64,000 bases of DNA. It comes from Harriotta raleighana. Lineage: Eukaryota. Position numbers and translations under genes: made by a program. Of the stretch, positions 1,260 to 7,300 are shown one piece after another (position 1 is the first letter of the stretch; every line of letters begins with the position of its first letter). A model generated the notes under the pieces. It was not told the origin of the DNA, made no database searches, and saw only the letters and a program-made list of their open reading frames with translations. The stretch is taken from positions 4,866,810 to 4,930,809 of the forward strand of contig JBNZDD010013708.1 of the NCBI GenBank assembly GCA_050575255.1. The letters run 5' to 3'.

Positions 1260-1319
1260 TACTATACATATGAAGGAGAGCAAGGTGAAAAGGGCAACTT
1301 GATTAAGGAGGTAAAAGAG
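1260..1319 (+). CDS. NEB: NEB N-terminal acidic exon [17 protein letters not shown](VKE)
   Basis: ctgtag acceptor; in-frame donors after 1310 (gtaaaa) or 1319 (gtaatt); starts YYT like human exon 4 as recalled. Confidence 0.65.
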
Positions 1320-4300
1320 GTAATTACCTCTTGTATGTCGTCCGAAGACTTGCATGATATATTTGATGTGTGTGTGTGTGTTATATGCATCAAGATAATT
1401 GTTGCTCTATCGGTTTGCATGGTGGGTTTATTCCTCGTGCCCACAAAATATAAAACTAATTTGCTTTGCAGTACATCATGTGAAATGCTTTGAGATGTCT
1501 TAATTACATGATGAGGCTCTAAATGAAATACAAGGATTATTATTATTATTGCCAACACATAAGTGAAAAGTGGAGCATTTCATAGAGTCATACGGCACAA
1601 AAGGAGGCCCATCGAGTCTGTGCCAGCTCTTTAAAAAGAGCAATTTAATCCCACTCCCCAGCTCTATCCCCATAATCTCGCAAATCCGTCCTCCCCAAAT
1701 AAATGTCTACCTCTCTTTTAAAAGTTATTATTGAATCAGCCTCCACCACTGTTTCAGGCAATACATTCCAGATTCAAACAGCTTGCTGAGTCAAAAAAAT
1801 TCTCCTCACCTCCCCTCTGCTTCTTTTTGAAACTATTTTAAATCTGTGACCACGAGTCACTGATACGCCCACCAGTGGAAACAGTTTTTCCCTATCTACG
1901 CTTGTCGAATCCCCTCGTGATCTTAACAACCTCTATTAGGTCTCCTCGCAACCTTCTCTGTTCCAATGAGAATAAACTAGCCTCTCTAGTACGAGTCACT
2001 GATACGCCCACCAGTGGAAACAGTTTTTCCCTATCTACGCTTGTCGAATCCCCTCGTGATCTTAACAACCTCTATTAGGTCTCCTCGCAACCTTCTCTGT
2101 TCCAATGAGAATAAACTAGCCTCTCTAGTCTTTCCTCATAGCTGAAGTCCCTCAATCCTGGTACCATCCTAGTAAATCTCCTCTGCACCCTTTCCAATGC
2201 CTTTACATCCTTCCTAAAGTGTGCTGACCAGAATTGTACATTGTATTCCAGCTGAGGTCTAACCAAAGTTTTCTAGAGTTTAGTCAGAACTTCCTGACTT
2301 TTGTACTCTATGCCCCTATTTATAAAGTCTAGTATCCCATATGGTTTTTTGACAGCCTTGTCTACTTGTCCTGCCACCTTTAAAGAATCACTCACACCAA
2401 ACCCCAGGTCTCTCTGTTCCTTCACACCCCTTAAAATTGTTCAACTTAGCCTACATTGCCTCCTTTCATTTCTCCTCCCAAAATTCATCACTTCACATTT
2501 CTCTACATTAAATTTCATCTGCCATGTGTCTGTCCATTTTACCATTCGGTCTATAGCTTCTTGCAGATGACTACTATCCTCTGTATTTACTATTTTTCCT
2601 AACTTTGTGTCATCAACAAACTTCGAAATGGTACTCCATTATATATTTCTTTGTGTGAACACTGGACTTGTGAATGACAGCCTTATTTTATTGGGATCAT
2701 CCATTATAGTCAAACCCAAACCCTAGTTCTAATCTAGCTATTGCCTCGTAAATGTCACTATAAGTCACTTTGTCAGCCTGGGGAAGGAATAAAACATTGT
2801 CTATTTAAAATGTAACCCTACAATATGTATGAGCCAAACTTTGCTCTTGGAGTTTCCAGGGGACCTGTGATAACTGGTGAAGTAGAGGAGAGGGCAATTT
2901 CAGTGACAATGAGACTACAATGCCATAAGACAGATGTGCTAACTGGTCTTTCAATTCTAGAATTACATAAGAATTACATAACATAAGAACATAAGAATAA
3001 GAAGCAGGAGTATGCCATTCGGCCCCTCGAGCCTGCCCTGCCATTCAATAAGCTCATGGCTGATCTTCTAATCTAACTCCACCTGCCCGCCTTATCCCCA
3101 TATCCCTTAATCCCTTTATCCATAAGAAATCTATCAATTATGGAATATAAAAGCACCGAAGGAGGCCATTTGGTCCATTGTGCCTGAGCTCGCATTTTAT
3201 AATAACTACCCAATCAGTCCCACTGCCCCGCTCCTTCCTCATATCCTTGCAAATTATTTGAGTTTGAAAGAATCCACAATGTAGCGAACTCCTTGGGTCT
3301 CGACCCAAAACAGTGTTGTGTTGCTCAGTCTGGGTAAGAGTGCGCTCAGTCTCTGTCAAGGCGACATGATTTGTGCCTGTCTTGTTGGCCTGCCGACACA
3401 TTTAGTTGGATGCTTTGCCCTTTTGCCTGAGGTTGAATTGTTTCCGAGCATTGAAACATGGCTGATGAGCAGCTCCCACCACTTTGCGATTGGCAACACG
3501 TGGATCGACTTGGGAGCATTGCATTGGAGCCCCGTTTCCAGCGATCAAAGATGATCTGGAGGGCTGGATGGACGAACACATACAGAGATGATTCTAGGGT
3601 TTTATCCTGAGCTTTGGCACCTTCCGGGGGCTGGAATTCCCGCTTCCCACCTTTGTGTGGATCTCGAAATAGAGAACCCCATGTTACAGTCACCTGCTTT
3701 CTGCTGCCGTGTGCATGCCTTGGGTTCAATGCGCAGCAAGCAATCGCAACGTGCTTTGTAAAGGTGCCTTTTGTCGCATGGCCACTTAGTGTGTGGATCA
3801 GCATTTACTGCCGTCAAATGCCAGGGGAATAGTCTGCTGCAGTAAATGTGACACCCTTCATTTAGCTGTTTGATCAACAATTTTTCTTCGCTGCAAGATT
3901 TCGGAACCACGTACAACCATTACAAAGGTTAGGACAGCAATGGTTTTAAAAACATGTTTCAGAACAAACTAAAATGGTGCGGTCAATCAATTTGTGATGC
4001 AAACAAATCTGGTAACATGTTTTAACCAGAACATAGTTCTATTATATTATTTTTCGAATGATATTTTTAACATCAAAAATGAATAAGACAAGAAATACAT
4101 CATTAAAAATAAGACAAGGTTGTTTTCCTACGGCACATCTGTATAGGCTTTTTCTTCAACTGTGAAAAAACTGACGTTTGCGTACATGCTCCAGAAAGCC
4201 CAGAAATTCTGCCTAGTCTCAGCCTTTGTGTCTATTTTGCCTTATTTAAGGTCAGGGAGAATGGTGGAAACATTCTAAAAGAATTTGATCACTCAACCTA

Positions 4301-7300
4301 TGACTGTTTGTGAGCCACTGCTGTGCTCAATTGGCTGCCGTGTTTTACCAACAATATATACAGTAATTTCACTTTACAGTATGTTCTGCAAAGCACTTTC
4401 AGACGTCTCAACAACCTGATCAGGCACTATATCAAATACAAGGATTCTTATCAGTAATATTACTCAAATTTAGCCTTAATTTGGAAATCCGTGTTTTTTA
4501 AGATGTTTTAAAAATTGCCTTCCAAATTAAAACTAACTCAAGAATTTTCCACAATTCTGCCCAATCTTAGGTTTTAAAACAAGATAATCTTGCCAGGCTG
4601 AAACCAGTGGATTTTCTTTTGGTCTCTTGACATTTGCATTTCCATTTTATTTAATGGGATTTGTATGGATTTGCGTATATTGGAGTACTGTACTGCAATA
4701 AATAGTGAGACTGTTGATTGAAGCATCTGCAGATTGCTCAGTGTTGCATACAATTGCAAGAATCCAAAGATTTGTCCTGACAGAGCGAGATTGTTTGCAA
4801 ATGCACTATCTCTCACACTTGATTTAGTGGTTTGGTTATTTTTCTTTCCAACAAGGTTTCGGAACCACGAACGGTCATCAAACGGGTGAGAATATCAATG
4901 ACGTTTAAAACAAAAAGTGTCCTTTGATTAACAAAACACAACATCACAGCTACCTACTAGGCAGTCGAGACAGAGCTGTATACAGCCTGGAGCATGATTC
5001 TCTTGCTTCTTATCATGTTCATGCATCCTTTAGTATCAAAAGCATATCAGATTGGAAAAACATGGCTCAATAGTGGCTTTTTTATTTTTCTTCAAATGGC
5101 CATTTCATGCAAAGCTACATTAAATTATCATTGTTTCCCATGTCACATTTTTGTTGTTGCAAAGGAATTGAGTTGACCTGAAGGTTGTTGTTCTTTCTTA
5201 CTAGGTTTCGGAACCGTCCACGACCTTTACACAGGTGAGACTCTATAAAAACTGTATTGTCCAATGTTGTTGGCATTATGTGCTGGGTGCAAATTAATGC
5301 CGCCTTTTCCTTGGGTGTTTTAAGTCCCAGCAGATCCAATCCGAAGATGGGTTAACTGTACGAAAAGCACGAAAGAAACGGAAGGTTGACACTTCAAAGT
5401 TCATGACACCTTACCTTGAGCACAGTCAGAAGATGCAGAATCTTTTCAGCCAGGTACAGAGTGAATCACGCCTTTTTTGTGTCTCACGGCTGTTTGAGTG
5501 TCTGTTTGTTTTATGTTCTTTTATCATTCCACTCTTTGCCTTGGCTAATTAGTGATAGAAAATAATAATAATTTGGTTGCTTCAATCAATCCATAATTCT
5601 TTGTGGGACGCTGCTATGTGCAATTGGCTGCTGCGTGGTGCCCACGAAATGTTCTGAAAAGTGCTTTGAGATACCACAGCAGCATGATAAGGCACTATAT
5701 CAGTCGCAAGGATTATTCTTCTTTTTATTATTAGTTCACCAGCAGGGCCTATGAAATGTTATACAATTTACCAAGAGTAACAATTCTCAGGAATTTTTTT
5801 TTGGGGGGAAAGAGGAATTAGCCCGGCTTAGTTAGTTACTGTTACTTCGTTCTTTGTGCTTTTATACGTAGAACAAATACAAAGAATTACATGAAAAGGA
5901 AAGAGGAAAATCTTATGCTGTTACCTTGGACACGCCAGAACTTAGGAGGATTCGCAAGGTGCAGAGGCAGCTCAGTGATGTGAGTACAAGAACAAAATTA
6001 TATTTATAGAGTGCATTTCACTTTGGGAGGCTGCTTGTCAAAGTTACGGGCGGGCAATGTTGCTCACACTGCCTGCAATGATGTAAAAATGGCTGGTGTT
6101 TTACCAGATCCATTTTTAATGCTTAATGTTAATGATCCAGACTGCTCATTTACTGACCACAGGATCAGTATCTCAGGACCATCATCTTCCAACAACAACC
6201 ACAACGATGACAACAAATTACATTTATACAGTGCCTTTCACGTCGGGAGGACATCCTAAAGCATTGGATAGTCAAGGAATCGGAATGATTGGAGGGTATG
6301 GAGGGTGGAGGTTAAGGGGAGGAATGAAGAGATGGCGGTTATTCTTCTTTAGTTGGTAAATATACCAGATTTCGGTAAAAGGCACTTATGATGAGACTTC
6401 GATTGATTGGAATTGTTGGACAACAAGGGATGTAATAGGAACCAGCATTGATGTGTTGTGCCTATTACGTTGTGTCCACCGTGTAATGCAAGTGATTTGG
6501 AGAGCCTATCATATGCAATGTGGCTATAGTGTATATAAATGGATACTTCTGCCAATTTCTCCACCCATGTTTGTGTCTCAATGATCCAGGTCAAGTATCG
6601 TATGGAGGGGGACAAGGCGAAGACTGTCAGCCATGTTGATGGACAAGCTCGGGATATTGCCCACGCCAAACACGTTTCCCAGTTAGTCAGCAAGGTAAGT
6701 CCGACATGACTGCCACTGGCCCAGCCAAGCACAGTTCCATAAATACTTACAGCTAGCACGGCTGAGGAGTTACTCGCCACATTGTGTCTGCTTGAGCCAA
6801 CTCTTTTAACATCAATCCAATAATGGTGGTGACTAATGAAAGCCGCACAATACTTAAATTCAAGCATTTCCATTTTCATTGAGGAGCTATATCTGCGCAG
6901 TTGTGGCAAGTTTATGTGGGATGGACTCAAGCTATGCCGGAATAAGGCAAGTATTGAACAGGGTGTCCACAAAATCCTCTTACCTCCCACCCCCGTTACA
7001 AAAAACTACATGGAACTATGGCAAAATGGAAACAAACAGACTATAGTTAAACACTTGGAAAGCAAAGGTCTCAATGTTGGAAAGGCAGGGAAATGGCCTT
7101 GAAGGTTATGCCACCATCTGGAAAAAATAGTGGAAGAGGTTTTTGATGGGGTTATCCTCTTAGTTCTGTACCTGTGTCACTAGAACAGCTACCAGTTTCC
7201 TCAACAGTAACACGTTGAAACAAACAGACCTATAGAAAGAGGAGATTACCATACAATCTGTGGTTTACTAATTGGCATTGCTTCTTAGGTGTGGTGTGCA

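Follow-up and report, generated by a model that had tools for sequence, protein, structure and literature searches.

Vertebrate nebulin heads have a common layout, in which an acidic tip, a linker rich in threonine and serine and a basic hinge precede module M1. This unique N-terminal region comprises 77 residues in human nebulin (PMC7109182), and in a survey of 53 vertebrates the head ranges from 32 residues in zebrafish to 112 residues in the thorny skate (PMC7754682). As far as the accessible text of the nebulin literature goes, the unique head is given no function of its own, and splice-variable regions are listed only for the super-repeats and the Z-disc end. Read-through open reading frames (ORFs) of mammal-, bird- and lizard-like type hold linker and hinge together in one exon of 67-98 codons, inside which repeats account for the variation in head length, whereas three separate microexons are found at the locus described here; a teleost locus (L005) has one 45-nt linker exon adjoining the hinge exon. 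The original prediction had given one larger exon for this region in human NEB, and five mammal-like read-through ORFs, human itself aside, agree with it (~67 codons including the hinge).

Sarcomeric proteins with tandem arrays of small exons in their variable termini are already known, and nothing at this locus points to a new mechanism. The P exons of avian troponin T, for example, are lineage-restricted small tandem exons that extend the variable N-terminal region of a thin-filament protein by repeated short peptides. Adult pectoral muscle switches the P exons on, and they bind metal ions or Ca2+, whereas the units in nebulin are near neutral, rich in Ser/Thr and apparently mostly included. 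The SRRM3/4-dependent neural microexons (3-27 nt) are likewise very short, frame-preserving and conserved, but the nebulin units, at 30 nt, exceed the 27-nt limit and belong to a muscle gene. SRRM4 binds near the 3' splice site, and UGC in this position is its motif. As TGC lies near the acceptor in only one of the three segments (A), compared with 28 of 67 ordinary module exons, the SRRM3/4 neural programme finds no support here. By size, 30 nt falls within the microexon definitions in use of 3-30 nt or up to 51 nt (PMC13676984) and outside the strict 3-27 nt class.

A close counterpart is the nebulin of the elephant shark, Callorhinchus milii, for which RefSeq XP_007894492.2 (isoform X6; P0030) was our reference. 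Its head carries the same decapeptides, likewise ordered and positioned, with the same flanking exons, and 817 of 911 residues are identical across the first module exons; it differs in coming from another species, at 10% divergence, and in that its models name no microexon array. RefSeq and UniProt models therefore already contain the peptides, and databases had these exons before. We found no published description of a head microexon array in the accessible text; Data S1 of PMC7754682, whose N-terminal alignment has elephant shark, thorny skate and whale shark among its species, may show the repeats.

Head exons of the Harriotta raleighana nebulin gene

The window is a stretch of 64,000 nucleotides from Harriotta raleighana (GenBank assembly GCA_050575255.1, contig JBNZDD010013708.1, positions 4,866,810 to 4,930,809). 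It belongs to the NEB orthologue, which has 67 module exons in a repeating 99-312 nt pattern, tandem PF00880 modules of ~35 residues, seven-module super-repeats and 89.6% identity to C. milii nebulin. Its N-terminus is of the acidic, unique nebulin type and not the LIM domain that NRAP carries (PMC7370890), as 20 of 21 residues of the ATG exon, whose coding part lies upstream of the window (L002:6138-6200), are identical to the start of C. milii nebulin. Both the Pfam modules and the exon match to C. milii bear out the earlier assignment of the region to the non-modular nebulin head.

All head exons lie on the + strand. The second coding exon (1260..1310; 17 codons, phase 0) corresponds to P0030 residues 22-38, with 10 of 17 identical. 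An alternative donor at 1319, which scores equal to 1310, would give 20 codons; the upstream junction had been placed there, but it is donor 1310 that agrees with the C. milii model, and donor 1319 is absent from the C. milii models. Downstream follow three 30-nt, phase-0, stop-free segments, exactly where they had been predicted and with the translations claimed: A (3898..3927; P0030 residues 39-48, 9/10 identical), B (4856..4885; residues 49-58, 10/10) and C (5205..5234; residues 59-68, 8/10), the copy that has diverged most. Together and in order they match residues 39-68 with 27 of 30 identities. A 90-nt intron with an in-frame stop (5235..5324) separates C from the hinge exon (5325..5453), whose 43 codons (residues 69-111, 34/43 identical) encode the basic stretch and the start of the first nebulin module; two more AG acceptors lie in frame, at 5331 and at 5334. 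The first regular module exon (5872..5979; residues 112-147) reaches PF00880 above the cut-off. The window exons thus tile P0030 without gaps (22-38, 39-48, 49-58, 59-68, 69-111, 112-147), and the C. milii protein requires no fourth copy. Used alone as a query, the hinge exon gave no match among proteins of 77-2000 residues or against PDB sequences. The segments do preserve the frame, as proposed, but this is unremarkable, since all 72 mapped exons of the gene have lengths divisible by three in a mapping that sought phase-0 exons only and in which exons tiled the protein.

Each segment has the expected pyrimidine tract and AG before it and GT after it. We scored these signals with matrices built from the 67 module exons of the same gene, using intronic positions only. 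By this measure the acceptors of A, B and C stand at the 45th, 43rd and 51st percentile, which is average; their donors are weak, at the 6th, 16th and 16th. We compared them with 1812 AG..GT candidates, 9-60 nt long, from the introns: 13 reach the score of A and 4 that of B, and none equals C, the best of the three. One intronic 30-mer (2142-2171) outscores both A and B, so that splice signals alone leave A's status as an exon unproven.

The 10-mer shared by A, B and C occurs three times in the window against 0.024 occurrences expected (+ strand, second-order Markov model), and AG-RTTTCGGAACC-19 nt-GT has three matches in the 1.1-Gb genome, which are exactly A, B and C and span 1.34 kb; the reversed control has 18. 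The whole genome holds no fourth copy with the same core; more diverged copies are possible. In nucleotide sequence the segments are pairwise identical at 20-22 of 30 positions, and they are equal in length and phase. Moreover, the flank upstream of A (3838..3897) is homologous to that upstream of B (4796..4855), close to the splice sites: these 60 nt align with a score of 51 against a null maximum of 38, reached by 0 of 276 null exon pairs, and still beat all 276 without the last 20 nt. The score of the 45 nt downstream is reached by 4 of 276 null pairs; farther out, A/B similarity is at null level, and the flanks of C do not rise above it. The shared flanks noted for A and B are thus beyond chance near the splice sites, which, with a repeated exon sequence unique to the locus, supports the tandem microexon duplication that had been proposed.

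The C. milii records show how the units are combined. We retrieved 18 proteins (15 from a 54-member cluster and 3 singletons), of which 17, one of them a UniProt entry, contain all three units; RefSeq XP entries are predicted models, whose counts do not measure inclusion. In the exception, isoform X9 (XP_007894495.2), a block of 37 residues is missing that comprises A, B and the 17-codon exon before them. C is in 18 of 18, and no single-unit skip occurs among these 18 records, although such skips are possible among the others. Mutually exclusive use of the duplicated exons is rejected by the 17 proteins with all three.

Distribution of the units among vertebrates

The nebulin of the horn shark Heterodontus francisci (XP_067892361.1) has four related units. 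In comparison with the window units, three of them score higher than every one of the 6921 other 10-mers in the protein, the fourth is reached by one, and B is identical to the second at 7 of 10 positions. As in chimaeras, tandem S/T-E-P-x-T/M units run from the acidic tip to the hinge; the differences are that there are four, that two are spaced by 13 residues and not 10, that acidic endings are more frequent, and that no clear one-to-one match to A, B and C exists. The horn shark, the only named elasmobranch retrieved, is known from a protein model alone, so that the proposed survey of sharks for such units yields a copy number of four but no readable exon borders. The four units make the array common to chimaeras and sharks. 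Among the 352 long nebulins fetched, only those of C. milii and the horn shark have a tandem array; the claim of lineage specificity thus holds at the level of cartilaginous fishes and nothing narrower. The microexon array would explain the finding of the 53-species survey that heads are longest in cartilaginous fishes. A metagenome scan returned a teleost-like locus (L005) as well as a weak match (L006), and no cartilaginous-fish DNA.

Homology of the units to bony-vertebrate heads was rejected as a general claim: the best 10-mer beat shuffles at p<0.05 in 2 of 29 species, and in none after correction. A register-fixed test of the last 10 codons of a skippable fish head exon, picked after the match was seen and to be taken as a lead only, gave p values of 0.0013 in seabass, 0.006 in Archocentrus, 0.14 in gar and 0.58 in coelacanth. 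Models of a short-head isoform are found in coelacanth (1/15), gar (2/17), seabass (1/17) and cichlids (1/15). In addition, read-through ORFs P0001/P0026 contain a related unit, a putative 99-nt intron and a hinge exon, in the same order as in the window.

Probable spacer exons, mostly included, and the alternatives

With a probability of roughly 0.75, we favor the explanation that the segments are old tandem copies of one microexon, mostly included, that encode a disordered spacer. The three exons were likely copied in tandem from a single ancestral cartilaginous-fish microexon, and A, B and C are likely present in most transcripts; their splicing in H. raleighana is supported indirectly, by the orthologous protein models. 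The units would form a Ser/Thr-rich spacer, predicted to be disordered, that separates the acidic tip from the first actin-binding module. The weak donors may allow a minor isoform in which the block is skipped and the head is 37 residues shorter, paralleling the small head exon skipped in gar, coelacanth, seabass and cichlid models. Such a spacer would alter only the reach of the acidic tip and not the length of the actin-binding ruler, and at 0.36 nm per residue for a stretched chain the change would be at most ~11 nm, fully stretched. FoldIndex gives -0.24 for the C. milii head and -0.06 for the three units, and the net charge runs from -12 in the tip through +2 in the units to +4 in the hinge; against a disordered spacer, the horn shark units score +0.07, slightly on the ordered side. 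The variation in head length reported across 53 vertebrates (PMC7754682), as far as the accessible text goes, is what would be expected of a spacer.

The feature is real and mostly ordinary, and its importance is modest. It provides an exon-encoded, conserved head repeat that, together with short-head isoform models in five fish lineages, offers natural long and short forms to compare.

Module-level conservation and a fixed S-E-P-x-T core exceed what a pure spacer needs. The units are 90% identical to C. milii (27/30), like the modules (3247/3622, 89.6%), which leaves room for a binding motif; the flanking head stretches reach 57% (20/35; Fisher p 0.005, with the boundary set after seeing the data). 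It is therefore conceivable, though doubtful, that the units are an array of S-E-P-x-T short linear motifs that bind a pointed-end partner or bear regulatory phosphate or O-GlcNAc, with copy number setting avidity. An S/T-E/G/D-P-x-T/M core is present in all 8 independent units, and in both lineages a basic residue stands 2-3 positions before the next serine (K-R-V-S in chimaeras, R-E-V/I-S in horn shark). In chimaeras, K-R-V-S at the junction of B and C makes a putative PKA-type motif, which the horn shark head lacks; no unit has an S/T-P site. Ser/Thr phosphorylation of mouse nebulin rises with beta-adrenergic stimulation (PMC7109182), but the same source, in its accessible part, assigns tropomodulin binding to modules M1-M8 and not to the unique head. 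Furthermore, none of the other 333 long nebulins that we fetched has such an array, a lone similar 5-mer in one vole aside, so that bony vertebrates could do without any partner site. RNA-level constraint may also account for some of the conservation, as the TCG codon and the first 10 nt are kept in all three segments; TCG is rare and makes up 22 of the 263 Ser codons of the module exons. A functional role for the units, which we consider unlikely, would, if true, be the first assignable function for the unique head of nebulin, and the skippable head exon of bony fishes may then be a single-copy relative.

We consider it somewhat less likely still that the exons are independently regulated cassettes, which, in the manner of the avian troponin T P exons, add 0, 10, 20 or 30 residues according to tissue or stage. 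The weak donors and the loss of part of the array in isoform X9 speak for this, as does the MBNL-type word YGCY, one of several motifs scanned, which occurs six times in the 150 nt preceding A, compared with a mean of 1.8 before module exons. However, no 150-nt flank contains an RBFOX or QKI word, and long reads of mouse Neb place muscle-type splicing differences in the 3' half only, in the accessible text of PMC7370890. The original prediction of a free set adding 0-30 residues also finds no support in the 18 C. milii proteins retrieved, where all three units are the rule, the one loss is a block and C is never missing.

Finally, that the segments are intronic repeats or pseudo-exons is very improbable and appears largely refuted by the orthologous protein models already: A's total splice score is matched by 13 intronic candidates, but the peptides recur in order in C. 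milii and in related form in the horn shark, their amino acids are conserved at module level, and the pattern is unique to this locus genome-wide.

Three probable coding microexons in the nebulin head

The window holds the 5' part of the nebulin gene on the + strand (G000:C13708:4866810-4930809; 1.10-Gb genome), and 72 of its phase-0 exons map onto P0030, Callorhinchus milii nebulin (XP_007894492.2, isoform X6). The nebulin head starts in the ATG exon, located in L002, just upstream of the window. Over the first module exons, identity to C. milii is 817/911, compared with 688 for the horn shark and 585-651 for five bony vertebrates, which makes a chimaera other than C. milii the likely source. 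The window sequence bears out the originally predicted positions, translations and splice dinucleotides of three 30-nt segments, A (3898-3927), B (4856-4885) and C (5205-5234). Their decapeptides (here, units) correspond to residues 39-48, 49-58 and 59-68 of P0030, with 27 of 30 residues identical, and on that protein they bridge the stretch from the 17-codon exon (1260-1310) to the hinge exon (5325-5453) exactly. Judged by this correspondence, A, B and C are coding exons in the model of the orthologous protein.

All three units are present in 17 of 18 C. milii proteins (15 from a 54-member cluster and three singletons, all predicted models rather than reads), which does not support the original idea of a free cassette rheostat adding 0-30 residues. 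In isoform X9 (XP_007894495.2), C is retained, and the 17-codon exon is missing along with A and B. Three tiny exons without bony-fish counterparts, together with a skipping isoform, most likely reached such models from RNA evidence, as would be expected of the annotation pipeline. The upstream junction had been predicted at 1319. This donor scores the same as 1310, but the C. milii model ends the exon at the 1310 equivalent; the horn shark model has, in the corresponding position, the three residues that 1319 would add. Because of the equal scores and these extra residues, both donors may be used. Both are in frame on this 17/20-codon exon, and the hinge exon has three in-frame acceptors (5325, 5331 and 5334), so the sequence next to the array may vary finely, by 2-3 residues, at each end.

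The 10-mer shared by A, B and C occurs three times on the + strand of the window, against 0.024 expected. In the genome as a whole, the full pattern, acceptor and donor included, is found in three places, exclusively A, B and C, while the reversed control pattern gives 18 matches. Compared with 67 module exons from this gene, the acceptors have average scores and the donors low ones. Since 13 of 1812 intronic candidates score at least as high as A (4 for B, 0 for C), the signals are good, yet insufficient alone as proof of exon A. One intronic 30-mer without a stop (2142-2171) exceeds both A and B; it is unrelated in sequence to the units, is not in the C. milii protein and is likely a decoy inside a repeat remnant. 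The intron preceding A also carries a 139-bp repeat in two perfect tandem copies (1852-2129), either duplicated very recently or produced by misassembly. The hinge exon donor (5454-5459) is among the gene's weakest (4th percentile); the exon is in all C. milii proteins seen.

Distribution and origin of the array

Four related units stand in the horn shark model XP_067892361.1. Scored against the window units, three of them rank above every other 10-mer of that protein (6921 in all), and a single other 10-mer scores as high as the fourth. In the read-through ORFs P0001 and P0026, an acceptor-like stretch is followed by a related unit, 33 codons of inferred intron and the hinge exon, the layout of C and its 90-nt intron. 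Of 352 long nebulins (from the top lists of 1947 and 465 matches plus cluster members, with many isoforms per species), those carrying the motif come from C. milii (18 proteins), the horn shark and, with a single occurrence, a vole. A shuffle test for the unit on 29 bony-vertebrate heads gave p < 0.05 in two, none after correction. On these comparisons, the array is common to chimaeras and sharks, represented by one named elasmobranch (horn shark), and not seen elsewhere among the matches listed. The label "lineage-specific" thus holds for cartilaginous fishes among the nebulins compared, but not more narrowly, as the horn shark also has units.

Elsewhere the linker is built differently. The teleost-like locus L005 has a single 45-nt linker exon adjoining the hinge exon, also a small head exon of the skippable type (L005:93-137). 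Amniote-like read-through ORFs hold linker and hinge together in a single exon of 67-98 codons (two of nine without a visible acceptor), supporting the original statement of one larger exon in human NEB. In the amniote heads P0022, P0018, P0065 and P0115, this linker has grown through repeats within a single exon, with tandems of 10 residues in a bird-like ORF and of 5 residues in mammals, a convergent lengthening via a different route. Six sauropsid heads (P0012, P0037, P0011, P0046, P0063, P0142) carry an E-P-x-x-I/V-I/V-x-E stretch spanning an exon junction; its resemblance to shark units (p 0.02-0.09, the six not being independent) is probably chance.

Tandem exon duplication, as originally proposed, is supported by pairwise identities of 20-22/30 nt and by the A and B flanks, alike over ~60 nt upstream (0/276 null pairs reach the score) and ~45 nt downstream (4/276). 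Further out, A and B show no similarity, and the flanks of C do not resemble those of A or B above null. Because each copy has its own C. milii counterpart, the duplications are older than the split of the two chimaeras. The rare codon TCG (22/263 Ser codons in module exons) is kept in all three copies, and this, with flank similarity being only splice-proximal, suggests constraint on splicing signals. The alternative is the slow evolution of chimaeras (PMC12241362). A weak lead to the ancestry of the unit is the skippable fish exon, whose last 10 codons resemble it in two percomorphs (p 0.0013 and 0.006, post hoc), and not in gar or coelacanth in the same post hoc comparison.

Of the systems compared, the P exons of avian fast troponin T come closest as an array of small exons; that array is regulated and binds ions (PMC7581897). 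At 30 nt the units are microexons by the 3-30 and 51-nt definitions, and fall outside 3-27 (PMC13676984). Known nebulin splicing concerns the super-repeats and the Z-disc end (PMC7109182, PMC7370890, PMC11153343). No published description of the array was found among titles and abstract starts on the nebulin head, microexons, sharks, Callorhinchus and exon duplication, a search mostly outside the subscription literature; the peptides may already be in print, in Data S1 of PMC7754682. The array is real, conserved across cartilaginous fishes and already within database protein models; as an array, it is apparently undescribed.

Head layout and proposed role

The head begins with an acidic tip (net -12), followed by the units (+2) and then a basic hinge (+4) that leads to M1, the first nebulin module. 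Its FoldIndex is negative, and Ser/Thr make up 12 of the 30 unit residues in C. milii. Vertebrate nebulin heads range from 32 to 112 residues (PMC7754682). The units' function is most likely that of a spacer within the head, where they would be mostly included. X9-type skipping would make the head 37 residues shorter and leave the actin-binding modules untouched, so that the ruler, at 5.5 nm per module, would keep its length.

Alternatively, the units may carry a motif role rather than act purely as a spacer. They are as conserved as the modules between window and C. milii (90% vs 89.6%), and more so than neighbouring head stretches (20/35; p 0.005, with a post hoc boundary). By consensus, a PKA-type motif arises across the B/C junction in chimaeras, replaced by R-x-x-S motifs in the horn shark, and no S/T-P site lies within the units. 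The evidence does not support a link to tropomodulin, because its binding is assigned to M1-M8 (PMC7109182) and there is dispute over whether it colocalises with the nebulin N-terminus (PMC7109182, PMC2878950).

Short-head models are seen in coelacanth (1/15), gar (2/17), seabass (1/17) and cichlids (1/15), and not in anoles (0/16), bichir (0/15) or paddlefish and sturgeon (0/15). From such models, a short-head isoform may be widespread in fishes; the nebulin literature examined yielded no mention of it. Seabass, a cichlid, gar and coelacanth (P0361, P0370, P0205, P0172) each have one isoform model that skips a small head exon, 15-17 codons long.

Further along the gene, several super-repeat exons (42226-62701) have best matches in C. 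milii nebulin that recur and fall out of order, and these exons are near-identical among themselves, which suggests recent super-repeat duplication or homogenisation in Harriotta raleighana.
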